This document shows positions 7,387 through 53,725 of a stretch of DNA of 53,725 nt, in pieces (position 1 is the first letter of the stretch; each line of letters opens with the position of its first letter). A model generated the notes under the pieces. It searched no databases. It had not been told where the DNA came from and saw nothing but the letters and a program-made list of their open reading frames with translations. A program made the position numbers and the translations under genes. The stretch comes from Bacilli bacterium (GTDB taxonomy: Bacteria > Bacillota_I > Bacilli_A > RF39 > UBA660), in the NCBI GenBank assembly GCA_017625395.1, contig JAGALD010000018.1, positions 1 to 53,725 on the forward strand, read 5' to 3'.

Positions 7387-7647
7387 ATGATTATTAAATA
7401 TAACTTACGAGCTCGTAAGATTTTAGCAAATAACATAATATTTTTCCGATTAGAAAATGAGTGGTCGCAAGAAGATTTTGCAGATAAACTTGGGACAACT
7501 CCTACTTATGTTTCGACACTTGAAAATGCTAAAAGAAATACGAGGATTGATTACATAGGTCACATAGCAGATACTCTTGGTGTTTCTATCGAACAATTAT
7601 TTAAAGAAAGACCAAAAGTTAAAAATCATCGAATACCTAGACGATAA
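7387..7647 (+). CDS. XRE HTH regulator resembling R-M controller (C) proteins
   Basis: WSQEDFADKLG...YVSTLENAKRN; start moved to follow the AGGAAGGA RBS. Confidence 0.8.
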   Translation: MIIKYNLRARKILANNIIFFRLENEWSQEDFADKLGTTPTYVSTLENAKRNTRIDYIGHIADTLGVSIEQLFKERPKVKNHRIPRR

Positions 7648-7781
7648 GAATATATAATTATTCTTTTTTTGTGCCATTTTTATTATAACACGAAAAAATT
7701 TATTTTGAATATTAGTTTGCGTTAAAATGTGGCTATTTTAAAATTGATTAGGTGTCATAATAGATATAGGTAGGTGAGAAT

Positions 7782-12510: not shown

Positions 12511-12828
12511 ATGCAAAAGGAGAACTTTGTATATAATAAAACATACAATAAGTATGGGAAAGTAGTACTTACTTTGGATAAAATGCTAGAAAAGAGAAAT
12601 ATGAAACCATATAGATTAAGTATTTTAACAGGAATTAATTGGGGAATTATCAAGAAATATGTTAGAGGTGATTTATATAGGGTTGATTTAGACTTATTAG
12701 CTAAAATATGTTTTGCATTAAATTGTTCATTAAGTGATATAATACATTACGAAGAAGAAAGAACCATCCAAAGAAAAAATCAAGAAAAAGATATGAAAAA
12801 TACAAGAAAAATGTTAAATAAAGTATAA
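12511..12828 (+). CDS. Cro/C1-type HTH regulator (YozG-like)
   Basis: LDKMLEKRNMKPYRLSILTGI...LAKICFALNCSLSDII. Confidence 0.8.
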   Translation: MQKENFVYNKTYNKYGKVVLTLDKMLEKRNMKPYRLSILTGINWGIIKKYVRGDLYRVDLDLLAKICFALNCSLSDIIHYEEERTIQRKNQEKDMKNTRKMLNKV

Positions 12829-13031
12829 AAAAATGTTAAAAAAATTATATAACACAAAGCAAATGTTAGGTGCTATAATTGATATAATCGCAGATACTAT
12901 GAAAGGAGATTCACAAACAACTAATGACTATACTTAATTAAATATAGTTTATATGAGTATAGTCTAAATATGGAGATAGTAATTTTTAATATCCTATGTT
13001 AGTGTAAAAACCAATTCAAGGGGAGATACTT

Positions 13032-13163
13032 ATGGGAAGAATTAAAAATAACTACATCAACAAAGTAAATTGGCAAGATCAAAAAAGAAATCATCATGCC
13101 ATTAAAAGATTAAACATAATTTTAAGTAGTATTTGTTTAATAAGAGAGTTTTATTCTGTATGA
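13032..13163 (+). CDS. Small 43-aa ORF, possible leader peptide
   Basis: GGGGAG RBS; MGRIKNNYINKVNWQDQKRNHHAIKRLNIILSSICLIREFYSV; stop codon inside a terminator hairpin. Confidence 0.45.
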   Translation: MGRIKNNYINKVNWQDQKRNHHAIKRLNIILSSICLIREFYSV

Positions 13164-13180
13164 ATAATGCTCTCTTTTTG
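13142..13180 (+). terminator. Terminator just upstream of the ArpU-like gene
   Basis: aagagag..ttattc-tgtat-gaataa..ctctcttttt. Confidence 0.65.
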
Positions 13181-13199
13181 TTTTCTAGGAGGGTTTTAT

Positions 13200-13640
13200 A
13201 TGAATGGATTATTATCAGATTCAATTATTAATCAATTTGATTACGGAGTTATTAAAAAGAATATTATTGATTTTATTAGTGCAATCAATTTATTAAGTTT
13301 TAAATTAAAAAACATTGAAAGACCTAAAATAACACCTAGTTATGAAATAAAATATAATTGTTTTGTACCTACAACATCATCAAAAATAGAAAACTTTGTT
13401 ATTAAAAAGATATTTTTAGAAGAAGAAATAAAAGAAATTATATCTAAATATACTATGGCAGTAAATTCATTAAATGATATGGAAAGAAAGGTATTCATTA
13501 AAACTTATATTTATGAACAGAAAGATGATGTGATGTGTTATGAAGTTGGTGTAAATGCAACTAAATTATTGCAAGTTAAAAAATCTGCATCAATAAAATT
13601 TTCAACAATATTAGATTTGGAAAACTTGTTAAATAATTGA
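13200..13640 (+). CDS. ArpU/RinA-like transcriptional regulator
   Basis: KITPSY...SKIENFVIKK...AVNSLNDMERKVF..Y...C-terminal HTH; AGGAGG RBS. Confidence 0.7.
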   Translation: MNGLLSDSIINQFDYGVIKKNIIDFISAINLLSFKLKNIERPKITPSYEIKYNCFVPTTSSKIENFVIKKIFLEEEIKEIISKYTMAVNSLNDMERKVFIKTYIYEQKDDVMCYEVGVNATKLLQVKKSASIKFSTILDLENLLNN

Positions 13641-13835: not shown

Positions 13836-14489
13836 ATGAGCAAATTTCTAAACAGACGAAAAATGGTGCTTATTTTGGTAGTATTATTTATTGCTTTTAT
13901 ATTACTATGTATTTTGTTTACTCCTAGATTTAAAAATGGTTCAGAAACATCTAGTAATATAAATGAAATTAAACAAGATGAATCAATAAAAAAACAAGAT
14001 GATAAAACACAAGCTCCAGTTCAAGAAGAAAAGCAAGAAGAAACCCCAAAACAAGAAGAAACCCCAAAACAAAATAATGCTAGTAATAATCAATCAAATA
14101 AAAAAGAACATCAAAACGAAAATAAATCGGATACAAAGATTGAGAATTCAAAAGATACTGGAACAAATAAGCAAGATTCAGTTAATAATATAACTGAAGA
14201 TAAGATAAGCAATGACGAACCAAAACAAGAACCCCCAAAAGAGGTGCAACCCCCAACAAAAACTGCTTGGGAAGAACTTGGAATATCAGAATATGATTAC
14301 TATAATAAACCAATGTGGAATTGGGCAAGAATAGATTTTTCTATTAATGATTATAAAACTTATGACAAAACAAGAGAAGCATGTATAAATAAAGGAGAAG
14401 AATACTATGAACAAGGATATGGTTATTCATGTACTAGCATAAATAGTTATTCAGGAAATTATTTAGGAGAGATGCTTAAAACTTTTTGA
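13836..14489 (+). CDS. N-terminally anchored membrane protein with low-complexity stalk
   Basis: TM segment, QEETPK duplication, globular C-terminus with two Cys. Confidence 0.7.
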   Translation: MSKFLNRRKMVLILVVLFIAFILLCILFTPRFKNGSETSSNINEIKQDESIKKQDDKTQAPVQEEKQEETPKQEETPKQNNASNNQSNKKEHQNENKSDTKIENSKDTGTNKQDSVNNITEDKISNDEPKQEPPKEVQPPTKTAWEELGISEYDYYNKPMWNWARIDFSINDYKTYDKTREACINKGEEYYEQGYGYSCTSINSYSGNYLGEMLKTF

Positions 14490-14511
14490 CACTACATAGT
14501 GTCTTTTTTTT
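14488..14511 (+). terminator. Terminator abutting the adhesin RBS
   Basis: gacact-acat-agtgtc-T8, then GAGAGAAGGTG. Confidence 0.7.
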
Positions 14512-14526: not shown

Positions 14527-17283
14527 ATGAAATGTAAATTAATTAAATATAATATAATAGGAATATTTTTATTTTTAGCTTTTATTGGAATTAAAGAAGT
14601 AAAAGCTGAAACTTATACTGGACAAGCAATATGGCCATCTGAACATATATCAAATATATATATTAAAAAGTTTAGAGCAGATGGATATATTAAATGGCAA
14701 CAAGCAAGATTTATTAGAAGAAGTGAAGATAATAAATTTGTATATTGTCTTCAACCTTATGTAGAAATTGACAATAATTTACCATATTACAACATAGAGA
14801 GACAAGATTATGCATCAGTTTTAAATATGACTGAAGAACAATGGGATAGAGTATCATTGTTGGCATATTATGGATATGGTTATGACCAAAACGGATATGA
14901 CCATTCAGCACAAAAATGGTATGCAATTACACAAGTTATGATTTGGAGAACTGTTGAACCAACATCAAGAATAGTATTTACTGATACCTTAAATGGTAAT
15001 GAGGTTTCTAATAAATTTGCAAGTGAAATAGCTGAGTTAGAATCATTAGTGGCAAATCACTATAAAAGACCAAGTTTTAATACAACTGATTTAGTATTAC
15101 CATTAGGACAAAGTGTTACTTTAACTGACGCTAATGGAGTTTTAAATCAATATAAAGTATCTTCAAGTGAAAATGTAAATGCAGTAATAAATGGAAACAA
15201 TATTGTTTTAACTGCAACAGGAATAGGTAATGCAAAGGTTAATCTATCAAAAAATGCTAAAAAATACTCAGAACCACCAATTGTATATTATAGTAATCAC
15301 TCACAAAATGTTATGCGTGTAGGTTATTACGATCCAATACCATCAAATTTTTCTTTAAAAGTAGTAGGTGGTAGAGTGGAAATAAATAAAGTAGATAGTG
15401 AAACAAAATTATCTATCGGTCAAGGAGATGGTTTATTAAGTAATGCAGTTTATGGTATTTATAATACAAGTAATGAAAAAATAGCAGAACTAACTACTGA
15501 CAAAAATGGATATGCAATTAGTAACTATTTACCAAGTTTAGGAGAATTTTATTTAAAAGAAATAACTCCAAGTAGAGGTTATGAATTAGATAGAAATATA
15601 TATAGATTTATTGTTGATGAAAATTCTTTACTTGCTAGTGTTGAGGTATATGAAAAAGTTATTGATAGTGATGTAACTATTTTTAAAGTTCATGCTAGTG
15701 ATAAAACTGGTATATTAACACCAGAACCAAATGTAACTTTTGATATTTATTTAAAATCAACTAATACATTATACAAATCTATAACAACTGACAAAAATGG
15801 ATATGCAACAATACATTTACCATATGGTACTTGGGTATTTAAACAAATGAATAGTACTCCTAATTTTGAAAAGGTTGAAGATTTTGAAATATCAATCAGT
15901 GAAACTTCTGACGAAAATATTTATAATTTAATTTCTAATGCAGAAATAACTGCAAGATTAAAAGTAATTAAGATTGATAAAGATACAGGAGATGTAATTG
16001 AAAGAAGTGGTATAAAATTCAAAATAAAATCTACTGCTACAAATGAATACATTTGTCAAACAATAACATATCCATCTGCTAAAACAATTTGTGAATATGA
16101 AACTGATGAAAATGGAGTGTTAATTACACCATATCCATTATTATCAGGAAAATATAAACTTGAAGAAGTTGACCAAGTTATTGATGGATATTTGTGGAAT
16201 AAAGAATCTCTTGAATTTGAAATTGGAGAAAATTCTAATTTAATCAATGATAGTGATTATGGTGTGTTATTTGAAACAAAATTTGAAAATAAAGCTGTAA
16301 AGGGTATGATTGAAATTAATAAATTAGGAGAAAAAGTAATTATTAAAGATGGTACTTTTAATTATGTTGATGAACCTTTATCTAATGTTAAATTTGGTTT
16401 ATATGATAAAGATAATAATTTAATAAAAGAAGTATTAACCGATAAAAATGGATATGCTAGATTTGAAGATTTACCATTAGGAAAGTACATAATAAAAGAA
16501 ATCTCAACAATGGATAATTTGATATTAGATTCTAATGTATATGAAGTTGAATTGAAATACAAAGATCAATATACGGCAATAATAAGTAAATCATTTGAAT
16601 TTGATAATGATTATAAAAAAGGAGAATTGCAATTTACAAAAACTGATTTAATTGATGGTAGAGTTATACCAAATACTAAAATAGAAATATATACAGAAAA
16701 TGATGAATTAGTATTTAGTGGTGTTACCGATGAAAATGGTATGATAATTATTGAAGATTTATTTGTTGGTAAATTTTATATAATTGAAACCGTACCAAAT
16801 TCATCTTATATACTAACTGAAGAAAAAATCTTCTTTGAAATCAAAGAAAATGGAGAAATAGTAAAAGCTGAAATGAAAAATGAACCTATTATGGGAAGAT
16901 TAGAGTTTACAAAAGTAGATTTTTCAACTCACGAGCCATTGCCAAATACTAAAATAGAAATATATACAGAAAATGATGAATTAGTATTTAGTGGTGTTAC
17001 TGATGAAAATGGTATGATAGTTATTGAAGAATTAAGAGCTAATAAATACTACATTATTGAAAAAGAAGCACCATCAAATTATATTTTAAATGAAGAAAAA
17101 ATGTTTTTTGAAATTAAAGAAGATGGAGAAATTATTAAATCAGTAATGACAAATGAAAAAATCAAAATTGAAGTACCAAACACTCTAAATAATGATTATA
17201 TTAATATTGCTATGATCGGATTAATTGGAATTGGAACACTTTGCATTGTTTATGGAACAATCAAAAAAAGAAAAGAAAAATAA
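14527..17283 (+). CDS. Cell-wall-anchored adhesin: thioester domain plus SpaA/CnaB-type repeats
   Basis: Signal peptide; YCLQP and TQVMIW; repeated K.D...TD.NG...G.Y...E...P.GY domains; VPNT + TM + basic tail. Confidence 0.85.
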   Translation: MKCKLIKYNIIGIFLFLAFIGIKEVKAETYTGQAIWPSEHISNIYIKKFRADGYIKWQQARFIRRSEDNKFVYCLQPYVEIDNNLPYYNIERQDYASVLNMTEEQWDRVSLLAYYGYGYDQNGYDHSAQKWYAITQVMIWRTVEPTSRIVFTDTLNGNEVSNKFASEIAELESLVANHYKRPSFNTTDLVLPLGQSVTLTDANGVLNQYKVSSSENVNAVINGNNIVLTATGIGNAKVNLSKNAKKYSEPPIVYYSNHSQNVMRVGYYDPIPSNFSLKVVGGRVEINKVDSETKLSIGQGDGLLSNAVYGIYNTSNEKIAELTTDKNGYAISNYLPSLGEFYLKEITPSRGYELDRNIYRFIVDENSLLASVEVYEKVIDSDVTIFKVHASDKTGILTPEPNVTFDIYLKSTNTLYKSITTDKNGYATIHLPYGTWVFKQMNSTPNFEKVEDFEISISETSDENIYNLISNAEITARLKVIKIDKDTGDVIERSGIKFKIKSTATNEYICQTITYPSAKTICEYETDENGVLITPYPLLSGKYKLEEVDQVIDGYLWNKESLEFEIGENSNLINDSDYGVLFETKFENKAVKGMIEINKLGEKVIIKDGTFNYVDEPLSNVKFGLYDKDNNLIKEVLTDKNGYARFEDLPLGKYIIKEISTMDNLILDSNVYEVELKYKDQYTAIISKSFEFDNDYKKGELQFTKTDLIDGRVIPNTKIEIYTENDELVFSGVTDENGMIIIEDLFVGKFYIIETVPNSSYILTEEKIFFEIKENGEIVKAEMKNEPIMGRLEFTKVDFSTHEPLPNTKIEIYTENDELVFSGVTDENGMIVIEELRANKYYIIEKEAPSNYILNEEKMFFEIKEDGEIIKSVMTNEKIKIEVPNTLNNDYINIAMIGLIGIGTLCIVYGTIKKRKEK
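16669..17030 (+). repeat. ~89-bp near-identical direct repeat in the last two pilin domains
   Basis: 16669-16757 versus 16942-17030, 273-bp period, two mismatches seen. Confidence 0.8.
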
Positions 17284-17906
17284 TAAAAGATACTTATTCA
17301 TTGTAATAGGTATCTTTTTAATTCTTGTGGGAATTTTTGTTATTGGATATAGAGAATATTCAAATAATAAGAATAAATTAGTAGAACAAGAAAAGATAGA
17401 ATTATTCTTTGAAGAAGAAGTGAATGATCCGATTGAAGAACCAAAACAGGAAGAAAAACAAGAAGAACCTCCAAAACAAGTAGAACCAAAGAAGGAAATA
17501 AATTATGTAGCAATATTAGAAATACCAAAAATTAATTTAAAAAAAGGATTAGTTGATAAGAATAGTAAGGACAATAATGTAGATAAAAACATATATACCT
17601 TAAAAGAGTCGACTTTTCCAAATGATGAAAATAATAGTCATATTATTTTAGCAAGCCATTCAGGGAATAGTTATATTTCTTTTTTTAAAAATTTTAAAAA
17701 AATTAAGTTTAGGAGATAAGGTTAATCTTTACTATCAAAATACTAAATATGAATACGAGATAAAAAAGAAATATGAAATAGAAAAAACAGGAACTATGAC
17801 ATTAAATCAAACTGATACATCAGATATAACATTAGTTACCTGTATAAGTGGTACAAATAAACAACTAGTATTTATTGCACAATTAGTAAATGAAAATTCT
17901 TACTAG
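17252..17906 (+). pseudogene. Sortase split by a +1 frameshift near 17692-17702
   Basis: Frame 1 has the TM, LEIPKINL and ILASHSG; the +1 frame continues LSLGDKV...TLVTC...LVFIA to TAG 17906. Confidence 0.8.
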
Positions 17907-17916
17907 AAAGGATTAT

Positions 17917-18288
17917 ATGAAAAAGATAGCAATTTATGAGAGTTATAAAACTGAGAAAGAATATTCACTATTAAATATTGAACAAATTTATAATGTGAAA
18001 AATGGGGAATATCTTTATTATGTTGATGAAATAAAATCAAGATTAGATAAAAATCGTCCTAATTTGGAAAGATTAAAGAAAGATATAGAGTCTGGAAAGA
18101 TAGAGCAAATAATAATTAAAAGTTTGCAACAAATATCAAGGGATACATTTTACAATTTAGATTTTATTTCTTTTGTGGAAGAAAATAATTGTAAAATTAT
18201 TTGTCTTGATGGAAGTGATGTTCATCAATATAAATATATTACTGAAGGAATAATAGAAAGACAGAATAGGGAGGAATTAGAAAGATGA
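17917..18288 (+). CDS. Stand-alone resolvase catalytic-domain homolog, degenerate
   Basis: MKKIAIY, YVDE, RPNLERLKKDIESGKIEQIIIKSLQQISRD; no YxRxS, no DNA-binding domain; ends EELER. Confidence 0.65.
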   Translation: MKKIAIYESYKTEKEYSLLNIEQIYNVKNGEYLYYVDEIKSRLDKNRPNLERLKKDIESGKIEQIIIKSLQQISRDTFYNLDFISFVEENNCKIICLDGSDVHQYKYITEGIIERQNREELER

Positions 18289-18683
18289 ATGAAGAAAGAG
18301 AAATGAAGAATTCTATTAATAAATTTGAATTAGAAGGAAATGTAGGAAATATTAGAGATATTTATACAAATAAAAATGGTAAATCAAGTTTAAGATTTGA
18401 TTTAGGACAAAACAATAATGGAAATACACAATTTGTTCCAATTGTAATTAAAGGTGCTTTAGTTGATACATATGGAAAAGAAATTGAAAAAGGCAACTGG
18501 ATTTCAGTTAAAGGGAGAATTAGTGCGTTTTCAAAAGATGTAGAAAAAGATGGTAAAACATTTAAAGAAAAATCAGTTGAAATATTAGGTTTTGAAATAA
18601 CTGATAGAACAAATAATAAAATATATACTTCTGATGGTCAAATTCAAGATATTTCAAATTCTAAAGATGAAATGGAAAGATAG
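18285..18683 (+). CDS. ssb: Single-stranded DNA-binding protein (OB fold)
   Basis: NKFELEGNV...TQFVPIV...KGNWISVKGRI; ends KDEMER instead of DDDIPF. Confidence 0.75.
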   Translation: MNEEREMKNSINKFELEGNVGNIRDIYTNKNGKSSLRFDLGQNNNGNTQFVPIVIKGALVDTYGKEIEKGNWISVKGRISAFSKDVEKDGKTFKEKSVEILGFEITDRTNNKIYTSDGQIQDISNSKDEMER

Positions 18684-18685
18684 TT

Positions 18686-19093
18686 ATGTCCTATAATGAT
18701 TTGATAGCTGATTATATTATAAAACAGGGTATAGAGTTAACATCAGAATTTAATTACACAATTAGTTTAGATGATTTAGAAAAAGATTTTGACAAAGAAC
18801 TTTTTACTTATGTAAAAAATAATATGGATGATATATTCAATTCAATATCTAGTGATGAAAGAGTAGCAGAAGTAATATTAACTGACAATAGTTTTGATAT
18901 GGTTTATTATTGGAGTTATTGTTTAGATGAAAATGAAAAACTGGTATTAGAAATAGCAAACTCTGAAAATATAGAATTAGAATATGAAGAAGTCGTAGAG
19001 TTAGGTATGAAACTTTGGAATTATGATAAAGATGAACGAGATAAATATGTTTTAGAACAAATAAAAGAAAGGAATGATGAACTTGAAAGATAG
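18686..19093 (+). CDS. Hypothetical acidic protein
   Basis: 135 aa, in operon; ends NDELER. Confidence 0.7.
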   Translation: MSYNDLIADYIIKQGIELTSEFNYTISLDDLEKDFDKELFTYVKNNMDDIFNSISSDERVAEVILTDNSFDMVYYWSYCLDENEKLVLEIANSENIELEYEEVVELGMKLWNYDKDERDKYVLEQIKERNDELER

Positions 19094-19748
19094 TTTAGTA
19101 AAAGGACAAGCATTCATTGGAATGGATGATGAAAAATATTATTTTTTAGGACTAGATTATGATGAACAAATATTATTTACTAATTTAGATTTATGGACTG
19201 ATAAAGAACAAAAATATATGGAAAAAAGTAATTTATTTATTAAAGAAATATTAAATGAAAAGTCTGAATTAATTGAAAATAGTACATGGTATTATCAATC
19301 AAAAAAAGAATTAGAAAGTTCAACAACTGAAGAAAAAATAAAAAGATGTTTAGATATAATTAAAAATTCTAATACATCAGATTTTGAATTACGACCTATA
19401 GATGTAGGTCCATTGGTTCGTGGTCAAGCATATAGTAAAAAAATGAACCAATATTATGAAGTAGTAGGGTTTATCGTTGATAATGATATTTATTTAGATG
19501 GTAAACTTGAAACAAATCAAAAAGGATTCTTTGCTATATATCATTCAAATTGTGATGAAAGTGTTCCGTTAATTTTTGAAAGACATTTTAGTGATAGAGA
19601 TAATGATTTTAATGGTAAACATTTTGTGGCTGGGAACAATGATAGAGTTGATATTCAAGATATAATTTTACCAAAAGAATTGGTAAATAATTCTATGAAT
19701 AGTTTTTTAAAAGATAGAATAGAAAAAAATGTGGATATGTCAAAATAA
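19074..19748 (+). CDS. Hypothetical protein
   Basis: 224 aa; weak internal duplication LVKGQA / LVRGQA. Confidence 0.7.
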   Translation: MMNLKDSLVKGQAFIGMDDEKYYFLGLDYDEQILFTNLDLWTDKEQKYMEKSNLFIKEILNEKSELIENSTWYYQSKKELESSTTEEKIKRCLDIIKNSNTSDFELRPIDVGPLVRGQAYSKKMNQYYEVVGFIVDNDIYLDGKLETNQKGFFAIYHSNCDESVPLIFERHFSDRDNDFNGKHFVAGNNDRVDIQDIILPKELVNNSMNSFLKDRIEKNVDMSK

Positions 19749-19772
19749 ACTGATGTATGTTCTTTGAAACTT

Positions 19773-19871
19773 TGATTAATAACTGCACAAAAAAGCAAAG
19801 TTCATTTATTTCTTTGTTAGGAGCTGTGTAGTTATTAATCATTTTGATTGATAATTACACAGTTCTTTTTT
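19773..19871 (+). promoter_or_regulatory. Attenuator-like element: overlapping antiterminator and terminator
   Basis: Segment B (19821-19841) can pair with A (19773-19789) or with C (19845-19865), which is followed by a T run. Confidence 0.65.
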
Positions 19872-19893
19872 GTTTAAAGAAAGGAAGATGAGA

Positions 19894-20175
19894 ATGAGAA
19901 ATTTATTAAATGTTTTAGCAATTGAACAATTAGAAGGTGGTACTTACACAGTAGATACAGTCTTAAATATAATTAAGCAAATAACTGATTGGGCATTAGC
20001 TATTGGTATATCATTATCAGGTATTGCATTAGTAATATGTTTTATTATGTATGCAGTAGTAGATGTAGATCAAAAACAAAGAGTTAAAACAAGAATAGTC
20101 CAAACCTTTTTAGGTATCTTTGGAATCATTATGGCAATCTCTTTAGTAAATATTATTATTCGTTTATTTACATAG
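19894..20175 (+). CDS. VirB2/TrbC-like pilin
   Basis: Two hydrophobic helices separated by a basic loop; first gene of the T4SS block. Confidence 0.65.
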   Translation: MRNLLNVLAIEQLEGGTYTVDTVLNIIKQITDWALAIGISLSGIALVICFIMYAVVDVDQKQRVKTRIVQTFLGIFGIIMAISLVNIIIRLFT

Positions 20176-20185
20176 GTGATTCGTT

Positions 20186-21580
20186 ATGATGTTAAAGGTA
20201 TTTGATTTATTAAGAAGTTTAGGTTGGTATATTGTTAGTTTTATATATGATTTAATTGATACCTTATTAGCAATAATAAAAAAACTTAATGCTTTTGATA
20301 TAATTAATTCTTTATCAAATAATGATGTTTTTAGAAAATTTTATACTGGTACTATGGCAATTGCAGTTACTTTATTTGCGTTGTTTATTATATGGAAATT
20401 TATAAATAAATTGTTAGATCCTGATGATGAGGTAACATTTAAAACTATATTTACTGAAATTGTAAAATGTGGTTTTTTAATAATGTTATCAACATTTCTA
20501 TTTGTCCAGGTCTCCAATTTCTCAATAACATTATCAAATTACACAGGAAATATATTTGAAAGCAGTACCAATACTTCTATGAGTGATAGTATGCTCACAA
20601 TGTTTATTTCATATAAAAATGAATATAAGAATAGTGATAAGTTTAATGAAACTACAAGCATAAAAGATTTAGTAAAAAATGGTTCTTTTGATAGTGATGA
20701 ATTGTATTTATCAAAATATGTAACAAAAGCAAAAATTATATTTGCTGATGAGAAAGACTATAAATATGACATAAATTGGATTATGTCTATTTTATGTGGT
20801 GGTTTCTTTTTATATAGTTTATTTTTTGCAGGAATAATGTTAGGACGAAGGCAAATTGAATTCTTATTTTTATTTTCAATTGCTCCAATAGTTTTTTCAA
20901 CTAGTGTATGTAATAAGCAAAGACGAGGTGCAGTAATAGAGCAACTTGTTTCTTTGGCATTACAAAGTGCAGTTGTTATGTTAATAGTTAGTTTGACAGT
21001 ACTCGTTATGCAACAAATAAATGAAACTACATTCTTTACAAACTCATTTCAAAATACAACAACAAAGACTTTATTATATTTAGGATGTGCAACATTTATT
21101 TTAACAGGAAGTCAAGTTATAAATAGATTTATTGGTGCTAATGTAAGTGCAGCAAGTGGTCGTGAACAACTTATGTCGTTAATGGGATATGGAAGAATGG
21201 CAGGAGCAGTAGGTGCAATTGGTGGAGCAACTGCAATTGGTGGTGGACTAATAGCAACTGGTGGCGCTATGAAAGTTGGAAAAGGAGTAGCATCATCAGC
21301 ATTATCAAATGTAGGATTAGCAATTGGAAGTTATGGTGCAGTCGATTCAAGTACAGGTGGAACACAAAGTAGAATGCAAAAAATGGCATCAGCATTAGGA
21401 ACTCGAATGTATGCTACTGGTCAAAAAATGTCAAGACGAAGTAATAATGCAAATAATTTTAGTGCAAGTGATGCTTTTATAAATGCAGGAGCAAGTAGTA
21501 TTAATAGTGCAGTAAAAAAAGTAATTCCAAGAGCTAGTTATAATACATCGTATTATAGACGAAGAAATAACATGATGTAG
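20186..21580 (+). CDS. VirB6-like polytopic conjugation membrane protein
   Basis: Multiple TMs; RRQIEFLFLFSIAPI motif; Gly/Ala-rich C-terminus. Confidence 0.75.
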   Translation: MMLKVFDLLRSLGWYIVSFIYDLIDTLLAIIKKLNAFDIINSLSNNDVFRKFYTGTMAIAVTLFALFIIWKFINKLLDPDDEVTFKTIFTEIVKCGFLIMLSTFLFVQVSNFSITLSNYTGNIFESSTNTSMSDSMLTMFISYKNEYKNSDKFNETTSIKDLVKNGSFDSDELYLSKYVTKAKIIFADEKDYKYDINWIMSILCGGFFLYSLFFAGIMLGRRQIEFLFLFSIAPIVFSTSVCNKQRRGAVIEQLVSLALQSAVVMLIVSLTVLVMQQINETTFFTNSFQNTTTKTLLYLGCATFILTGSQVINRFIGANVSAASGREQLMSLMGYGRMAGAVGAIGGATAIGGGLIATGGAMKVGKGVASSALSNVGLAIGSYGAVDSSTGGTQSRMQKMASALGTRMYATGQKMSRRSNNANNFSASDAFINAGASSINSAVKKVIPRASYNTSYYRRRNNMM

Positions 21581-21592
21581 GAGGTGTTTTAA

Positions 21593-21907
21593 ATGTATAT
21601 AACAGTGAAATCAATAAAAAGAAATTTAGGTTTTAAAGGTATTGAAATACCAGATATTATTATAGCTTTACCAATTATTATAATATTTATTGTTTTATTT
21701 GCTTTTACACCATTAAAAATACCAGCATTAATATTTTTGATGATTGGAGTTTTTTGTTTATTGCCAATTAATGTTAGTAAAAAGAATAGAATGTATAAAG
21801 TATTAATATTAATTTTTCAATATATATTTAGAACTAAAATATTTGTTTATCAAAAAGATAACATTAAGAAAGAGAAGGTGATTGAAGTAAATGAAAACAA
21901 AGAGTAA
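21593..21907 (+). CDS. VirB3/PrgI-like small membrane protein
   Basis: Two TMs, overlaps the virB4 start. Confidence 0.6.
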   Translation: MYITVKSIKRNLGFKGIEIPDIIIALPIIIIFIVLFAFTPLKIPALIFLMIGVFCLLPINVSKKNRMYKVLILIFQYIFRTKIFVYQKDNIKKEKVIEVNENKE

Positions 21908-24398
21908 AGAGCAAGTTGATAAGAAAAAAATAAAAGAAACAAAACTCCTTCAAAAATTTATAAAAAGAAAATCTAAAAAAGATAAGCAATATATTACAAA
22001 GAAGGTATTAATAAATAAATTCAAGAATTCTCAAAGTTTTACAAATGCTAAAGATGTAACTAACGAGGGACTATTAAATTTAAGGACTGGAGAAGTTGTT
22101 AGAATATATTCAGTAGATGCAATTGATTTATCACTAACATCTAATACCCAAAAAAATAATTTCTTTGCACAATTAAAATATTTATATCAAATAAAAGGGT
22201 TAAATTTAAGAATGTATAAACTAGATGATAAAATAGATTTGAATGTAAATAAAGATTATTATAAAGAACTAATGAATAAGTTTTCAGATGATGAAAATAA
22301 AATAAATTTTTTAGAAGAAAGATATTCAAGATTAGAAAGATTAGAAAGAGAAAATTTAACAACAACTAGTAGATATTATTTTGTAATCATATGTGATAAT
22401 GATAAAATTTTAGAACATATGACAGAAGAAATAGAAATGCAGTGTTATAATATGACACCGAGACTAAATATCCAAAAAATAACTAACAAATTAGAGATAT
22501 ATCAATTTTTAGTTAATTTATATTTATCTACTGCAAATATTGAGCAATTAATGTGGAGTGATTTAATTGAATTAATAACTCCTTTTTTTGTGCAAGAAAA
22601 TATGGGATATATGGATATTGATAGTGATGAAGTTCAAATAGTTACAATAAAAAAAATACCACCATTTATTGATGAACTATTTTTTGAAGAATTGTTTAAT
22701 GTTCCAGATGCAAGATGTTGTATCCATATTCAAGATACAATTCCAACTGATGAATTAGTTAGAAGATTAGATAGTAATTATGAATTTTTATTATCAGAAA
22801 GAACATCTACTAGAAAATTAAGTGATGCAACTCAAATGGATACCGAGAAAGAAAACTTTCAAGCTTTAATGACACAAATAAAAAATGGAGATGAAAAAAT
22901 AAAAGAAGTTGATTTTATTATTGTTATTAAAGGCACAAAAATTGAAAGAGAAGAAAAAATAAAAGAGTTAAGAAAAATTGCTGATGTATTTCAAATTAAA
23001 CTTGATGTTCCAAGAATGAGGCAATATGAAGGTTGGCAAGCATTTGATATAAACAAAAATGGTTTTGAAGACTATCATCAATATATGCCGACATTAACAT
23101 TAGCATCATCATTTCCATTAACTATTACTTCTTTTAATGATGAAACAGGTTATATGATGGGAACTGACATTCATACTGCTTTACCAATTATATTTGATAT
23201 GTTTCATAAAGATCCAACAAGACCATCATCAAATTTAGCAGTAATTGCTTCAACTGGTGGAGGTAAAAGTTTTACATTAAAGAAAATGATGATTAATGAA
23301 ATAAATCGTGGTAATAAAATTATTTGTTTTGATGCAGAAGGAGAATATAAAAAACTGGTTACACAAAACAAAGGAGAGTACATTGATTTATATTCATCTA
23401 GCGGTGGGATTATAAATCCATTACAAGTAAGATTTTTACCAAGTGATAGAGAAGAAAAAGAAGATGATGCAGTAGAAAAAATTAATTATGATGATTGTCC
23501 ACTAGCAAAGCATTTAGGTTCATTAGAAACATTTATCAAATGTGCTTTTGAAGAAATAAAAGAAAGTGAAGTTGTAGTATTACTTGATATGATTGAAAAA
23601 TTATATAAAAGATTTGGGATAACTAAACATACTAAAATATCTAGTTTAGAAAAATTAGAAAATAGTGATTATCCAATATTTTCGGATTTAATAGACTTCT
23701 TACCCGATTATAGAAATATGATTACTAATCCAGAACAATTAAAAATTGTAGATAAATTAGAAATATTGTTAGACAGATTTAAAGTTGGAACTGATGCAAT
23801 GTTATTTAATGGACACACAACTGTTAATCTTGATTCTAACTTAATCGGATTTAATGTAAAGGATTTATTGTATAGTAAAAACAAAAGAATTATTACAACT
23901 CAATTAGTAAATTTATTGACTTACTTAAATAATATAATTGTTAGTAATAAAATTATTAATGATAAAAAAGGTAATAAAAAAGAAATACAAAATATAGGAA
24001 TTGTTATTGATGAATTTCATTTGTATTTAAAAAATACTGATAGTGAAGTAATTTTAACATTCGAACAAATTGCAAGAAGAATAAGAAAATATCATGGAGC
24101 ATTTATGCCAGCTACTCAAAGCATACATGATTTTATTGGAGATGATGAATCAGTAAGAAGTGCAACTGCAATTTTTAATAATTGTCAGTATCAATTAGTT
24201 GGTATGCTTAAAGAAGATGATTTAACGACATACTTAAAATTATTTTATCAGAATCCACTTACTGATACTCAAAAAGAGTTCTTGATGAAAGCAGTAATGG
24301 GAGAATTTTTACTTACTATTAATTCAAAAAAAAGATTAAGACTAGCAGTAATGGCAACACCAATAGAAGTAGAATTAATGGGAGAGGAAGTTAAATAA
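21891..24398 (+). CDS. virB4: VirB4-family conjugation ATPase
   Basis: Walker A ASTGGGKS, FDAEGEY, INPL, Walker B IVIDEFH, RRIRKY, ATQS. Confidence 0.92.
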   Translation: MKTKSKEQVDKKKIKETKLLQKFIKRKSKKDKQYITKKVLINKFKNSQSFTNAKDVTNEGLLNLRTGEVVRIYSVDAIDLSLTSNTQKNNFFAQLKYLYQIKGLNLRMYKLDDKIDLNVNKDYYKELMNKFSDDENKINFLEERYSRLERLERENLTTTSRYYFVIICDNDKILEHMTEEIEMQCYNMTPRLNIQKITNKLEIYQFLVNLYLSTANIEQLMWSDLIELITPFFVQENMGYMDIDSDEVQIVTIKKIPPFIDELFFEELFNVPDARCCIHIQDTIPTDELVRRLDSNYEFLLSERTSTRKLSDATQMDTEKENFQALMTQIKNGDEKIKEVDFIIVIKGTKIEREEKIKELRKIADVFQIKLDVPRMRQYEGWQAFDINKNGFEDYHQYMPTLTLASSFPLTITSFNDETGYMMGTDIHTALPIIFDMFHKDPTRPSSNLAVIASTGGGKSFTLKKMMINEINRGNKIICFDAEGEYKKLVTQNKGEYIDLYSSSGGIINPLQVRFLPSDREEKEDDAVEKINYDDCPLAKHLGSLETFIKCAFEEIKESEVVVLLDMIEKLYKRFGITKHTKISSLEKLENSDYPIFSDLIDFLPDYRNMITNPEQLKIVDKLEILLDRFKVGTDAMLFNGHTTVNLDSNLIGFNVKDLLYSKNKRIITTQLVNLLTYLNNIIVSNKIINDKKGNKKEIQNIGIVIDEFHLYLKNTDSEVILTFEQIARRIRKYHGAFMPATQSIHDFIGDDESVRSATAIFNNCQYQLVGMLKEDDLTTYLKLFYQNPLTDTQKEFLMKAVMGEFLLTINSKKRLRLAVMATPIEVELMGEEVK

Positions 24399-24583
24399 TG
24401 ACAAAAGTAGTTAGTGATAAAGTTATTAGAAATAAATTTAAGAAAACATATAAAGAAGAATTTGAAGATGCAAATGAATCATTTATGGATTTCTTATTGG
24501 ATTTAATTCCAATAGAAATAATTAAAGAAATATTGTTAAAAGGTAATGACTATTACTATAAAGTATTTAATAAATATAAATAA
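24398..24583 (+). CDS. Small hypothetical protein
   Basis: 61 aa, coupled to both neighbours by TAATG overlaps. Confidence 0.6.
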   Translation: MTKVVSDKVIRNKFKKTYKEEFEDANESFMDFLLDLIPIEIIKEILLKGNDYYYKVFNKYK

Positions 24584-25512
24584 TGAAAAATAAAAAAAAG
24601 AATAATTTAATTCTCAAAATAATAGGTAGTAGTTCAATTTTAACAATAGCATCAATTATGGTTATTCTAATATGTATTCTTATGATATTTGATTTTTTCG
24701 GTGCTGAACTTACAAAAGAAAAAATATCAAATAATGCAGAATATGCAGACTTATATAAACAAGCATCAAATAAATATATAAAAAATGGATATGTTCCATT
24801 ACAAAGATTATTATATTTTTATTTAGAAGATCAAAGTCTAACTTTTGATACACTTTATCAACTAAATCAAAATCCAACTGGAAAAATTGAAAAAGAAATA
24901 TCAGTAGTATGTGAAGATGAGAGAGTAAAAAATATGGGTGCTTGTACTGCATCTAATATAGAAAGTAATAAAGAATATTTGTCTGTGCCGACACCATTAT
25001 TTAATTTTCCATTAAAGACTAGTAGTTATACAATTACTAGTTTTTATAATGAACAAAGAATTATTTATGGAGAACAAAATGTACATAGTGGGTGGGATTT
25101 AGCTACATCAGCCCAAACGCCTTTGTATTCAGTTTGCAATGGCACAGTACACAAAGTAACATATACTCAAAATGAAAATATACCATATGACCAAAGTGGA
25201 AATAAAACAGGAAACATAATAGTTTTAAAGTGTGATCAAGATTATGCAGAAACTTATTATGTAACATATGCTCACTTATATCCTAATAGTGCAAAGGTCA
25301 AAGTTGGAGATTCTGTTAGCCATTGGACTGAGATAGCAAGTGTAGGAACAACTGGTCATAGTACAGGAAATCACTTGCATTATCAAGTAGCTGATGCTAA
25401 TTGGAATTTAATAGATGGTATGCAACTAATAGATTTTAATTCAGTTACTGATTATTCAAATCAACTAGAGTATAAACCACCACAGGAAGCATTACCATTA
25501 CCATATAAATAG
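24583..25512 (+). CDS. M23 peptidase, conjugative cell-wall hydrolase
   Basis: N-terminal TM; HSGWD, YAHL, GTTGHSTGNHLH. Confidence 0.88.
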   Translation: MKNKKKNNLILKIIGSSSILTIASIMVILICILMIFDFFGAELTKEKISNNAEYADLYKQASNKYIKNGYVPLQRLLYFYLEDQSLTFDTLYQLNQNPTGKIEKEISVVCEDERVKNMGACTASNIESNKEYLSVPTPLFNFPLKTSSYTITSFYNEQRIIYGEQNVHSGWDLATSAQTPLYSVCNGTVHKVTYTQNENIPYDQSGNKTGNIIVLKCDQDYAETYYVTYAHLYPNSAKVKVGDSVSHWTEIASVGTTGHSTGNHLHYQVADANWNLIDGMQLIDFNSVTDYSNQLEYKPPQEALPLPYK

Positions 25513-25770
25513 TAAGGTAGCCACTAATAAAAATAAATGTAGTCATAAAAAACATTGATAGATAAAGAAAAAACAACAATGAGTAGCCACTTTTATATTA
25601 TAAAGTGGTCATTTTTGCAAGTGCAAAAATAGTAAGACATCATAAATTTACCCTGTAATTATAAGGGATAAATAAAATTATGGTGTCGTTCTTCTTATGC
25701 CCATTAAAAATATATAGTATTTTTAATTATAAAAAGTACTTATTTTTGATAAAAGTGGCTACCTTGTTAA
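25513..25770. other. Putative oriT region
   Basis: Non-coding, rich in inverted repeats, directly upstream of RHH-RHH-relaxase. Confidence 0.6.
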
Positions 25771-26149: not shown

Positions 26150-26482
26150 ATGAAAAAGATAACCGTAAGAGTAGATGATTACATTTACGATAGAATTAAA
26201 TTAGTGGCAAAAGAAAATCATATATCTGCCAATAAAGTAATTGGTAATATTTTAAAAAAAGTTGTAGAACAACCAAAAGAGATAAGTTATATAGAGGAAA
26301 TTCATAAGACTTTAATTAATATGGAAAATAAATTAATTAGTATATCAAAAAAACAAAAACTGCATTTTGATATATCATCATATCATTTTGCAAATCAAGG
26401 TTATCTATCAAATGCTGAACCTAGTGAAGATAAATGTTTAAATGAAATATTAAACAAAGATGTAAATAAGTTTAATGAGTAA
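26150..26482 (+). CDS. Second RHH relaxosome accessory protein
   Basis: KKITVRVDDYIYDRIKLVAKENHISANKVI; overlaps the relaxase start. Confidence 0.7.
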   Translation: MKKITVRVDDYIYDRIKLVAKENHISANKVIGNILKKVVEQPKEISYIEEIHKTLINMENKLISISKKQKLHFDISSYHFANQGYLSNAEPSEDKCLNEILNKDVNKFNE

Positions 26483-27842
26483 AAAAAGTCCAAATGTAGT
26501 TTTTGCTTGCAAATATTTATTGTCATTAAATAGTATTGATAATAAGTTTCAATCATTAGGTTATAAAGAAGATAGAACAAAAGATGTAGATGAAATGATT
26601 GATTATTTTTCAAATGTAAAAAAAAATGTAGTTGGTATGTTTGAATATTATATGGGACATACAAGAGGAGAAAATGTTAATCTTGTTTTAGAAAATGGTC
26701 AATATGCAAATAAAAAAGATATAAAAAAAATAAAAGAAGATTATAAAAAATATATTGAGTCATCTAATTTGTGGAAAGGAATAATTAGTTTTAAATCTGA
26801 TTATTTAAACTACAATATTTCAATAAAAGATTTAGAACAAAAGATGGCTAAAGAGATAATGCCACAATTTTTAAAATATTGTGGATTTAAAGATGTAAAA
26901 AAAATGAGTTATGTTTTTTCAGTTCATACAAATAAAAAGCATCCACATATACATTTAGCTTTCATAGAAAAACAACCCAATTATTTATATTGTGATAAGA
27001 AAGTAAATTATAGGAGACAGGGAAAAATAACAAAAGACGAGCAAAGATATTTAAAAAGATTAATCGAGTTATGTATTGAAAGAGAAAAAGTCTTTACTCC
27101 TTTGTTAAAGAGAACTAATGAAGATATTGATTATTTAAAATCATATTTTAATCCTAAAGAAAAAAACTTTATTCTTAAAGATATAAATGAAATAGAAATA
27201 GAAGAAAAAATTTTAAAGTTGGGTTGCAAATTAAAAGAATATAGAGAGTTAAATAATAATACATCATTAAAAATCAAATATAATTCGATTAAAAATAATG
27301 AATTGGGGAATGAAATAAAATCATTAACTAAAGAAATTAAATATTATTTGTTTAAAGATAGTGATTCGATTTTATATGCAAGTCAACATGACATTAATAA
27401 AGATTTAAAAAAAATAAATAGTTATTTTGATGAACTTAATGAAAATAACAACATAGAAGAATTAATACAAAAAAATAATATAGTAGAGAGAAAACAAAAC
27501 TATATTGATAGTTACATTTTTAATTCAATAGTAAATCATTCTTTATATAAATATAATAAAGTATATATGTATGTAAAAAATAAAAATCAATTAGATGTAA
27601 TTACTATTGAAGATTTAATACAAGAACTAGCATATCTAAATAATAATCATAACACAAGTGAAAGTGATAAAGAAAGAAGAAAGAAAGTATTAGATAATTA
27701 TTTTAAAGGAAATAGTAAGTCATCAAAATTTTATGCAAAAACTCAAATGGAAAAAGCATTAAAAAATATTAATTATGAAATGCAAAAATCAGCAGATAAG
27801 TTTAGCGAATTATTTAATTATGATAATAGCATTACAAAATGA
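26475..27842 (+). CDS. mobL: Relaxase, MobL family
   Basis: MIDYF, LWKGIISF, HTNKKHPHIHLAFIEKQP histidine triad. Confidence 0.85.
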   Translation: MSKKSPNVVFACKYLLSLNSIDNKFQSLGYKEDRTKDVDEMIDYFSNVKKNVVGMFEYYMGHTRGENVNLVLENGQYANKKDIKKIKEDYKKYIESSNLWKGIISFKSDYLNYNISIKDLEQKMAKEIMPQFLKYCGFKDVKKMSYVFSVHTNKKHPHIHLAFIEKQPNYLYCDKKVNYRRQGKITKDEQRYLKRLIELCIEREKVFTPLLKRTNEDIDYLKSYFNPKEKNFILKDINEIEIEEKILKLGCKLKEYRELNNNTSLKIKYNSIKNNELGNEIKSLTKEIKYYLFKDSDSILYASQHDINKDLKKINSYFDELNENNNIEELIQKNNIVERKQNYIDSYIFNSIVNHSLYKYNKVYMYVKNKNQLDVITIEDLIQELAYLNNNHNTSESDKERRKKVLDNYFKGNSKSSKFYAKTQMEKALKNINYEMQKSADKFSELFNYDNSITK

Positions 27843-52928: not shown

Positions 52929-53725
52929 ATGAAAAAACGTAATTTATTATTTTTATTTTCTGTTATGGTGATCTATGTAATTATTGGTTGTGGTTCTTGC
53001 TATAATATTTTTTCATATGGGTTAAATTATTTTTCAACGATAGAGAATAGACATTTTGCGCATTTTGAAGATGTTAAATTTAATAATTTTTTTAATGGTA
53101 ATTTGCAAACTAATTTGGAAAATTCTTTATCTGATCAGTTTTATCGTGCTGATGAATTGAGACTAAAATATTATGATAATCTTTTGTTTTTAGATTATAG
53201 AAATATTCCAAAATCTATTTGTAAAAACAAATATGTAAAGGTTGGTTCATTATTTGCTTCTTTTAATTGTGATGATTTATTTATGTATAGATATGATAAA
53301 AATTTTTATAATGATGTTATTTCGAAAATTGAAAATAATTTAATTATATATAATGAAATTAATAAATTAGTTGATTCATATTATTATTATATCCCTACTG
53401 GACAAGGTTATGATTTCGAAAATAATACTGATGAAGTTGATATAAAATATTATTTTGACCAGTATTTTGATAGTGATTATACATATTTTGAATTAGATAC
53501 TCGTAATTATTATGATTATCAAAAATATTTTTATAAAACTGATCATCATTGGAATCAGGATGGTTCTTATAAGGCCTATAGTGATATTATAACTACTATG
53601 ACAGGAGAGAAACCTAAAGAGATTTCTAAAAGATTAGATCTTACTGACGCTAACTTTTATGGTACTTTAGCAAGGCTAACTAAATATTTTGATATTAAAG
53701 AATCATTTTTTATTAACTATGTTGA
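52929..53725 (+). CDS. DHHW-family (AlgJ/AlgX-like) protein, 3'-truncated by the window
   Basis: ATG 52929, N-terminal TM, ENR motif, SDQF, in-frame YKTDHHWN at about 53533-53555. Confidence 0.75.
   Translation, partial: MKKRNLLFLFSVMVIYVIIGCGSCYNIFSYGLNYFSTIENRHFAHFEDVKFNNFFNGNLQTNLENSLSDQFYRADELRLKYYDNLLFLDYRNIPKSICKNKYVKVGSLFASFNCDDLFMYRYDKNFYNDVISKIENNLIIYNEINKLVDSYYYYIPTGQGYDFENNTDEVDIKYYFDQYFDSDYTYFELDTRNYYDYQKYFYKTDHHWNQDGSYKAYSDIITTMTGEKPKEISKRLDLTDANFYGTLARLTKYFDIKESFFINYV

Follow-up and report, generated by a model that had tools for sequence, protein, structure and literature searches.

The window analysed here is contig JAGALD010000018.1 (C82), taken whole at 53,725 nucleotides, from the genome of a Bacilli bacterium (assembly GCA_017625395.1; GTDB lineage Bacillota_I, Bacilli_A, RF39, UBA660), which comprises 1.49 Mb at 26.7% G+C and is 93% complete. 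The window carries an integrative conjugative element (ICE). Within this element, immediately in front of a gene for a pilin-like protein, a leader of about 120 nt is probably a cis-acting transcription attenuator that heads the type IV secretion system (T4SS) channel module, as judged from its sequence and from structural modelling. A cis-regulatory attenuator before the T4SS genes had been proposed in a first-pass annotation of this DNA, and is supported in silico by the predicted folds, their conservation and the related loci. The leader contains three related segments, A, B and C, of which B is able to pair either with A, in a putative antiterminator, or with C, in a hairpin resembling an intrinsic terminator. 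It lies in the 137-nt spacer between an upstream open reading frame (ORF) and the pilin-like gene, with the following parts and flanking features.

19074–19748, + strand: upstream ORF of 224 aa, of no known family, with a TAA stop at 19746–19748
19759–19769, + strand: box GTTCTTTGAAA, invariant in 16 of 16 distinct leaders
19773–19789, + strand: segment A, TGATTAATAACTGCACA, putative 5′ strand of the antiterminator, 17 bp with B
19794–19818, + strand: central small stem-loop, AGCAAAG (19794–19800) with CTTTGTT (19812–19818), −4.6 kcal/mol
19821–19841, + strand: segment B, common to the putative antiterminator (with A) and terminator (with C)
19845–19865, + strand: segment C, putative 3′ strand of the terminator, 21 bp with B around a 3-nt loop (19842–19844)
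19866–19871, + strand: T6 tract, putative U-tail of the terminator, directly 3′ of the stem and 94% conserved
19879–19896, + strand: purine-rich ribosome-binding site and two candidate starts (19888 and 19894) of the pilin-like gene
19888–20175, + strand: pilin-like (VirB2-like) small membrane protein, with weak family matches below the curated cut-offs

When the sequences were re-read, the positions that the first-pass annotation had given for A, B, C and T6 proved exact. Its gap of about 8 nt from the T-run to the ribosome-binding site of the pilin-like gene holds as well, and only the start codon needed correction: in place of 19888, the second ATG at 19894 is likelier, since it aligns with the start in the relatives and has a normal spacing from the ribosome-binding site. 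B is the reverse complement of A save for one G·U position. Departures from the exact complement of B number one in A and three in C, and all four are G·U on the + strand, as had been claimed of the differences between A and C. The 17-mer, allowing up to two mismatches, occurs within the window only at A, B and C, and elsewhere in the whole 1.49-Mb genome there is a single, unrelated two-mismatch match.

Folding of the full leader as RNA gave the B:C hairpin as the minimum free energy (MFE) structure (−39.6 kcal/mol, z −4.57; equalled by 0 of 200 shuffles). Cut after B, the leader instead adopted an MFE fold of A:B together with the inner AGCAAAG/CTTTGTT helix (−24.9 kcal/mol, z −4.12; 0 of 200 shuffles). 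These are the two structures anticipated from the letters alone, a 21-bp stem with a 3-nt loop and U tail, and a 17-bp stem with an inner helix. The former was also recovered by a consensus scan as terminator-like, with 20 pairs counted (the maximum of the tool), five of them G-C, and it did not form when the minus strand was folded. B:C has both the stem and the U-rich tract of an intrinsic terminator, and an upstream segment pairs with one of its arms, as in terminator/antiterminator systems, A:B and B:C having B in common. As sub-structures, the window's terminator and its A-to-B portion are predicted at −28.0 and −24.7 kcal/mol, and a weak 5′ hairpin holding A at −2.1 kcal/mol; the two whole-leader conformations are nearly equal (−36.0 vs −33.4 kcal/mol). 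In a scan of increasing transcript length, A:B was formed with a probability of at least 0.92 until the 3′ end reached 19864, with the flip at 19866.

The complementarity between A and B is not due to chance. A contiguous complement to B of at least 17 nt within 110 nt upstream arose in only 1 of 2000 shuffles, and at the six other + strand terminator-like sites of the window the upstream complement extends to only 4–6 nt. From the computed sequences, the two alternative folds, their conservation, and their strand-specific, wobble-only variation, we infer that B:C terminates transcription and that A:B prevents it from doing so. B:C and the U-tract would constitute an intrinsic terminator with an unusually long, 21-bp stem; A, transcribed first, would pair with B and withhold it from C, allowing RNA polymerase to continue into the T4SS genes.

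Relatives were fetched by means of the neighbouring VirB6-like protein, one genome per species, and 80 loci out of 139 relatives were used. Their genomes are mostly metagenome-assembled genomes of gut and rumen origin, with the titles Bacilli, Tenericutes, Mycoplasma or Clostridium sp. At all 80 loci we extracted the spacer that precedes the pilin-like gene, and classes were assigned by eye, since our own terminator scanner (100-nt span) was too permissive, reporting 68 of the 80 loci and placing some structures inside coding sequence. The A/B/C design was found at 19 loci, and at every one of these the 224-aa ORF lies directly 5′ of the leader. Nine loci have only a homologous B:C hairpin and T-run, with stems of 13–14 bp; two have an A:B-like hairpin followed by a T-run; five have a small, sequence-unrelated hairpin and T-run; and 29 have a different, larger structured element that ends in a T-run. 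A further 15 lack a hairpin (14 with spacers of 4–31 nt, and one with only the box and A), and one locus is uninformative. A hairpin and T-run, some unrelated in sequence, therefore stand just before the pilin ribosome-binding site at 64 of the 79 informative loci.

The 19 A/B/C loci and the window yielded 16 distinct leaders, which were aligned. Among these, B:C is paired in 96.7% of 334 cells (30–62% in slid registers) and A:B in 93.8% of 272 cells (24–51%), so that both alternative helices are maintained in the relatives. The variation is almost wholly wobble-compatible: eight pairs of B:C and six of A:B vary on one side, and pairing is kept in five of the six variable columns of A, seven of the eight of C, and three of the four of B. 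Addition of four distinct terminator-only relatives brought the B:C pairs with compensatory changes to two. Mean pairwise identity is 96% for B, 94% for the box, 94% for the U-tract, 86% for C and 82% for A, compared with 38–59% for the linkers and 67% for third codon positions of the adjacent pilin gene; B, the strand that serves both folds, is thus the slowest to evolve. Although nothing pairs with the 5′ half of A in the terminator fold, its complementarity to B is retained. With end pairs trimmed, there were 78 G·U cells (32 + 46) against one A·C cell, and pairing of the minus strand would be possible in only 82–83% of cells. The suggestion that selection acts on RNA structure is consequently borne out by the 16 leaders, in which A, B and C are kept, G·U far outnumbers A·C, and B is the most conserved segment.

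This strand asymmetry also bears on the idea that A, B and C are double-stranded DNA operators, two direct and one inverted, for a repressor or activator of a T4SS promoter. Motifs of 17–21 bp repeated in both orientations are typical of such sites, and the element encodes several helix-turn-helix (HTH) proteins and an ArpU-family regulator. Recognition of duplex DNA does not predict the excess of G·U over A·C, and strand-symmetric conservation beside a promoter was not what was found. No promoter-like site is listed in 19749–19887, where the T-run ends only about 8 nt from the ribosome-binding site; the genome contains the motif at no other place, and unrelated hairpins and T-runs occupy the same place in relatives. 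Operators are accordingly very improbable. Asymmetry alone does not exclude a role for the hairpins in single-stranded DNA during transfer, as an oriT-like site, single-strand initiation site, or single-strand promoter, since DNA hairpins also tolerate G·T, and the SSB gene is close upstream (18285–18683). Such a role is scarcely to be expected all the same: the relaxase gene (26475–27842) is about 6.6 kb away, the conserved T-run and the fixed place before the ribosome-binding site fit transcription and not nicking or priming, and the structure is swapped for ordinary small terminators in relatives.

The main alternative, though a rather unlikely one, is that B:C is a plain intrinsic terminator which punctuates or insulates a long + strand unit, that A is the functionless leftover of a duplicated arm, and that the terminator is bypassed by partial read-through or by a processive antiterminator. 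The window has at least seven + strand terminator-like hairpins (12157, 14488, 19821, 25586, 32595, 36854 and 37772), nine related loci have the terminator only, five have unrelated small terminators at the same place, and A:B is devoid of two-sided covariation. Conjugation operons with multiple terminators and processive antitermination are documented, according to excerpts of PMC8191782, PMC8955417 and PMC11658703. A leftover arm does not readily account for the identity of A exceeding that of the linkers and of third codon positions, for its variation almost only by purine transitions that keep the pairing with B, for a 5′ half that pairs with B alone, or for B being more conserved than C. 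In addition, no ConAn1 domain (PF17362) was matched in the 47 window ORFs or in a six-frame search of the 93%-complete genome, a search in which control genomes were silent too.

A third reading places the function of B:C after transcription, in the protection or processing of the pilin/T4SS mRNA or in masking of the ribosome-binding site, with differential expression within the operon as the outcome. B:C is indeed the stable fold in read-through RNA, about 14–22 nt 5′ of the ribosome-binding site, and in several relatives the terminator form is predicted to pair a linker CUUUCUU with that site, which is unpaired there with a probability of 0.00–0.22 in the terminator form and 0.12–0.59 in the antiterminator form. 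In the window the trend runs the other way (0.37 for the terminator form, 0.07 for the antiterminator form), the CUUUCUU pairings are low-complexity, A/U-rich interactions, and the U-tract is 94% conserved despite being needless for a stabiliser. This role is improbable, and would be compatible with attenuation rather than exclusive of it. Masking of the ribosome-binding site coupled to the switch was rejected, as its direction is inconsistent between the window and the relatives.

Most leaders with the A/B/C design possess a further 5′ domain. In 13 of the 16, an outer helix, P1, can form between the box, GUUCUUUGAAA(A), and a UUUUUAAAGGAC-like strand further downstream; a nearby GUGUAG (A′) is the partner of the 3′ half of A. 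P1 and A:A′ are jointly predicted to form a domain of about −20 kcal/mol that sequesters A. Its cells are 89% paired, compared with 40–51% in slid registers, with no two-sided changes. In the window the box at 19759–19769, which is the 5′ strand of P1 in most relatives, has had its partner deleted; the window and its 99% twin, L058, lack both A′ and the 3′ strand of P1, and L035 lacks only the latter. Length scans of two full leaders (L030 and L023) predicted the 5′ domain first, then A:B once B is out, and finally the 5′ domain with B:C, the return to this last state coming 4–10 nt before C is complete. The terminator form of L030 is favoured by about 9 kcal/mol (−44.1 vs −34.9).

From these models we infer that full leaders terminate by default and that the window variant reads through by default, since in the window A:B is favoured until the last base of C emerges, too late for the U-tract. 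In most relatives A would be locked in the 5′ domain, by the outer helix on the box and the local A:A′ hairpin, giving a three-state logic of anti-antiterminator, antiterminator and terminator in which termination would be the default, and the trigger would likely be a factor that acts on the 5′ domain. Through the loss of A′ and of the outer helix's 3′ strand, the window and its twin would read through by default, such that the 'switch' of the window may be biased to read-through with its 5′ module missing.

On sequence grounds the candidates for the site of a trigger are the invariant box and the 5′ domain of the relatives. The first-pass annotation had offered a ribosome finishing the ORF at 19748 as one possible trigger; this finds no support, as the spacing from the upstream stop to the leader varies and no leader peptide is conserved. 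A leader peptide or terminating ribosome was likewise set aside as unsupported: relatives differ in how far the box lies from the upstream stop. In many leaders an ATG-TTC-TTT-GAA frame begins in the box, with no ribosome-binding site; it has no start codon in L023, L028 and L029, and it stops at differing places after 5 to 24 codons. In the window a frame of 24 codons runs from an ATG at 19757 to a TAG at 19829–19831, from the box through A into B; it too is preceded by no ribosome-binding site, and neither its length nor its start codon is conserved among the relatives. The 224-aa upstream protein was also rejected as a trigger: it had no match in Pfam, NCBIfam, PHROG or the atlas, and its best sequence match in the PDB had an E value of 0.062. 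Its AlphaFold model has a mean pLDDT of 66.5, and the best Foldseek match, Dcp1 EVH1 (E 0.018, TM 0.17), is not meaningful.

Several observations weigh against attenuation. No trigger was found when conservation of leader peptides, Rfam aptamers and the fold of the upstream protein were examined. Two-sided covariation is almost nil, with no such pair in A:B and one in B:C across the 16 leaders, so that of the proposed check by covariation among homologues, continued pairing of both helices was found and strict covariation was almost absent. A shuffle control (control a) was not exceeded for A:B and was reached by 34 of 500 shuffles for B:C; since it was unexceeded in most measures, the comparative support rests on conservation and the direction of wobble changes in a fairly shallow family. 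One of the three substitutions in L058 introduces a mismatch into A:B and B:C alike, and the inner helix is disrupted by another, a shifted helix being predicted there. The leader is also dispensable, 15 of the 79 informative loci having no hairpin and nine only the terminator. A and C could stem from tandem duplication of a terminator arm, which would leave the alternative pairing without function. Finally, the length scans describe equilibrium and not kinetics, and branch migration by C might still be rapid enough for termination to occur.

At L054 and L061 the spacer contains a hairpin of A-like and B-like arms followed by a T-run, without C, and in L061 a copy of TTCATTGAAAA, similar to the invariant box, stands on either side of the hairpin. 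These variants suggest, from their sequences, that recombination between the repeats reshuffles the leader.

Conjugation burdens the host, and in Gram-positive elements it is restrained at several levels; control based on terminators has only recently been worked out, for pLS20, Tn916 and pCF10. The conjugation operon of pLS20, a plasmid of Bacillus subtilis, is gated by a zipper-type attenuator, cATTpLS20, which excerpts of its report (PMC13401043) describe as a terminator preceded by a long central stem-loop and, further upstream, by a weak stem-loop, a strand of which pairs with the 5′ arm of the terminator and thereby extends the central stem. According to the same excerpts, the forms are close in energy, the antiterminator is the default, the upstream stem-loop is the most conserved part, and similar attenuators occur on many Gram-positive plasmids (PMC13401043). 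Compared with cATTpLS20 as so described, the leader likewise places mutually exclusive terminator and antiterminator folds before the conjugation genes of a Gram-positive mobile element. A weak upstream hairpin is predicted to hold the strand complementary to the 5′ arm of the terminator (in the window, A is its 3′ strand), pairing of A with B would lengthen a central stem-loop, little energy separates the conformations, an upstream segment is best conserved, and the terminator stands just before the ribosome-binding site of the first controlled gene. The differences from that description are also considerable. A of most relatives forms the 5′ strand of an A:A′ hairpin that an outer helix encloses; the leader lies inside an ICE before a pilin-like gene, and is not the 5′ leader of a conAn1 gene; the central helix of the window is only 7 bp and is changed in L058, while most relatives have no independent central stem-loop; and the terminator stem is 21 bp, the comparison being one of topology and not of sequence. 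By analogy, the leader would work like the zipper-type attenuator of pLS20, and it is not a member of that family, since no conAn1 gene lies downstream and the relatives use a different lock on A.

Attenuators of the trp type follow a 1:2 / 2:3 / 3:4 logic. Protein-dependent leaders of Firmicutes include the L20-controlled infC leader and the LicT/RAT system (excerpts of PMC1865079 and PMC5393181). The anti-antiterminator, antiterminator and terminator of the relatives share one strand per step, much as in these classical attenuators as far as the excerpts describe them. The strand order differs, since A pairs either with A′ just downstream or with B, and we recognised in the leader neither a leader peptide nor a RAT-like site, T-box, or known ligand-binding fold.

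Hairpin stems of 9 ± 2 bp are typical for B. subtilis terminators, and the 15-bp stem of pLS20 TerR is resistant to processive antitermination, as stated in excerpts of PMC10325885. The stem of the leader terminator is similarly far longer than usual, at 21 bp in the window and 20–22 bp in the relatives; all other terminator-like stems of the window are at most 13 bp. TerR as described there ends its operon, whereas the leader terminator precedes the T4SS genes and has a built-in competitor strand. It is speculation, by analogy with TerR, that stem length would confer resistance to antitermination here; the length may simply compensate for weak pairs, as the stem is rich in A/U and G·U, with five G-C pairs. 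For Tn916, excerpts of PMC11658703 present terminators as insulators that are overridden by RNA elements, and canT as a processive, terminator-independent cis RNA; for pCF10, attenuation by a counter-transcript (antisense RNA) is cited in excerpts of PMC13401043. In these accounts, as proposed for the leader, terminators within conjugative elements or at their edges keep conjugation genes switched off until an override based on RNA occurs, and the leader differs from canT and from the pCF10 antisense RNA in being a local competition between A:B and B:C.

A full-text literature search returned no paper that deals with the leader or with conjugative elements from this group of bacteria, the supplementary files of the pLS20 papers lying outside that search. 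Rfam gave no match at the gathering score in the window, only chance-level matches for 19500–20100 (E at least 0.6 across the element), and none at E ≤ 0.1 in eight related loci. Near and distant searches of a plasmid collection with 19000–21600 (2.6 kb) yielded no match; a metagenome scan with the loose pattern TTCTTTGAAANNTNNRTTRAT matched at least 119 stretches, and the leader was in none of the 80 loci fetched from it. A scan of viral contigs with the core of B gave one match only, a chance one with no hairpin.

As an attenuator, the leader would extend terminator-based control to ICEs of uncultured, small-genome gut Bacilli, with a control point inside the element that heads the channel genes. 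Its natural variants (full three-state, sensor-less, terminator only, and none) would amount to a ready-made deletion series; the invariant box gives a starting point in the search for the factor that permits the mating channel to be expressed, and the leader is short enough for easy in vitro work. A further proposal, which must be considered doubtful, is that the terminator and its cis antiterminator form a dedicated T4SS gate, closed to general read-through and processive antitermination and opened only by a trans factor recognising the GUUCUUUGAAA box and 5′ domain. If this were true, the window would be a natural 'sensor-less', constitutively open variant; the three-way-junction terminator RNA of a sister lineage, described below, would be an independent solution to the same problem; and both RNAs would be new classes of riboregulator for conjugation in uncultured, small-genome gut Bacilli.

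The genes of the ICE are nearly all on the + strand. They encode HTH regulators, an ArpU-family regulator, a type III restriction-modification pair, a thioester/SpaA-type surface adhesin, a split sortase, SSB and two proteins without a family; then, after the leader, the pilin-like protein, a pLS20_p028/Mbov_0396-type membrane protein, a VirB3-like protein, a VirB4-type ATPase, an M23 peptidase, a relaxase, a VirD4-type coupling protein, a 2106-aa SNF2-type protein and a large serine recombinase. The pilin-like protein matches PF18895 with an E value of 1.5e-4 (22.2 bits, against a cut-off of 26.6) and the Mbov_0395 family with 0.0029. The T4SS module (19.9–25.5 kb) is bracketed by the leader and by the hairpin at 25586, and is composed as follows.

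20186–25512, + strand: T4SS channel module
20186–21580, + strand: pLS20_p028/Mbov_0396-type membrane protein
21593–21907, + strand: VirB3-like protein
21891–24398, + strand: VirB4-type ATPase
24583–25512, + strand: M23 peptidase
25586–25609, + strand: terminator-like hairpin at the 3′ end of the T4SS module, from the consensus scan

In a sister lineage, which includes a second T4SS copy of the same genome (C108, about 7580–7700, minus strand), a different conserved element sits between the SSB gene and the pilin-like gene, in the same position as the leader and unrelated to it in sequence. It is present at 29 of the 80 loci (L062–L076, L083 and L087–L100), and had no match in Rfam. Its structure was drawn from per-sequence folds, RNAalifold on a MAFFT alignment having given a meaningless structure of seven pairs. 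The folds show a three-way (in some members four-way) junction, whose closing helix of 10–13 bp runs straight into a U-run; in many members this helix is AGCAAAGAA/UUCUUUGCU, and it encloses one hairpin, whose loop is conserved, and a second, small one. Covariation between subtypes, with pairing kept, affects both the closing helix and the first hairpin, as in GCAAUGA/UCAUUGC (L092), AGAGCAAAAUA/UAUUUUGCUCU (L093) and GGGUAAAA/UUUUACCC (L091). This element may be a branched terminator or a riboregulator. The central helix of the window, AGCAAAG/CUUUGUU (19794–19818), which follows a run of A, resembles its closing helix; the window leader may be a recombinant in which the part comprising A′ and the outer helix has been replaced, or the likeness may be due to chance in A/T-rich sequence.

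Three paralogous pairs of pilin-like and VirB6-like genes are found in the genome, on C82 (the window), C108 and C43, the C108 copies being 60% and 53% identical to those of the window, and the C43 copies 37% and 33%; several conjugative elements therefore share this 1.49-Mb genome. Further upstream in the window, 12511–13640 contains an HTH_26 repressor-like gene followed by an ArpU-family regulator gene (TIGR01637, E 1.5e-13), 5′ of the genes that run from the adhesin to the T4SS, and a terminator-like hairpin (14488–14503) lies just 5′ of the adhesin gene. This region and hairpin are a likely control region of the element. The sortase beside the adhesin (14527–17283) is split into ORFs at 17225–17719 and 17796–17906, the first matching positions 1–60 of the 125 in the profile and the second, of 36 aa, containing the rest, including the TLVTC motif; the split reflects a frameshift, a pseudogene or an assembly error.

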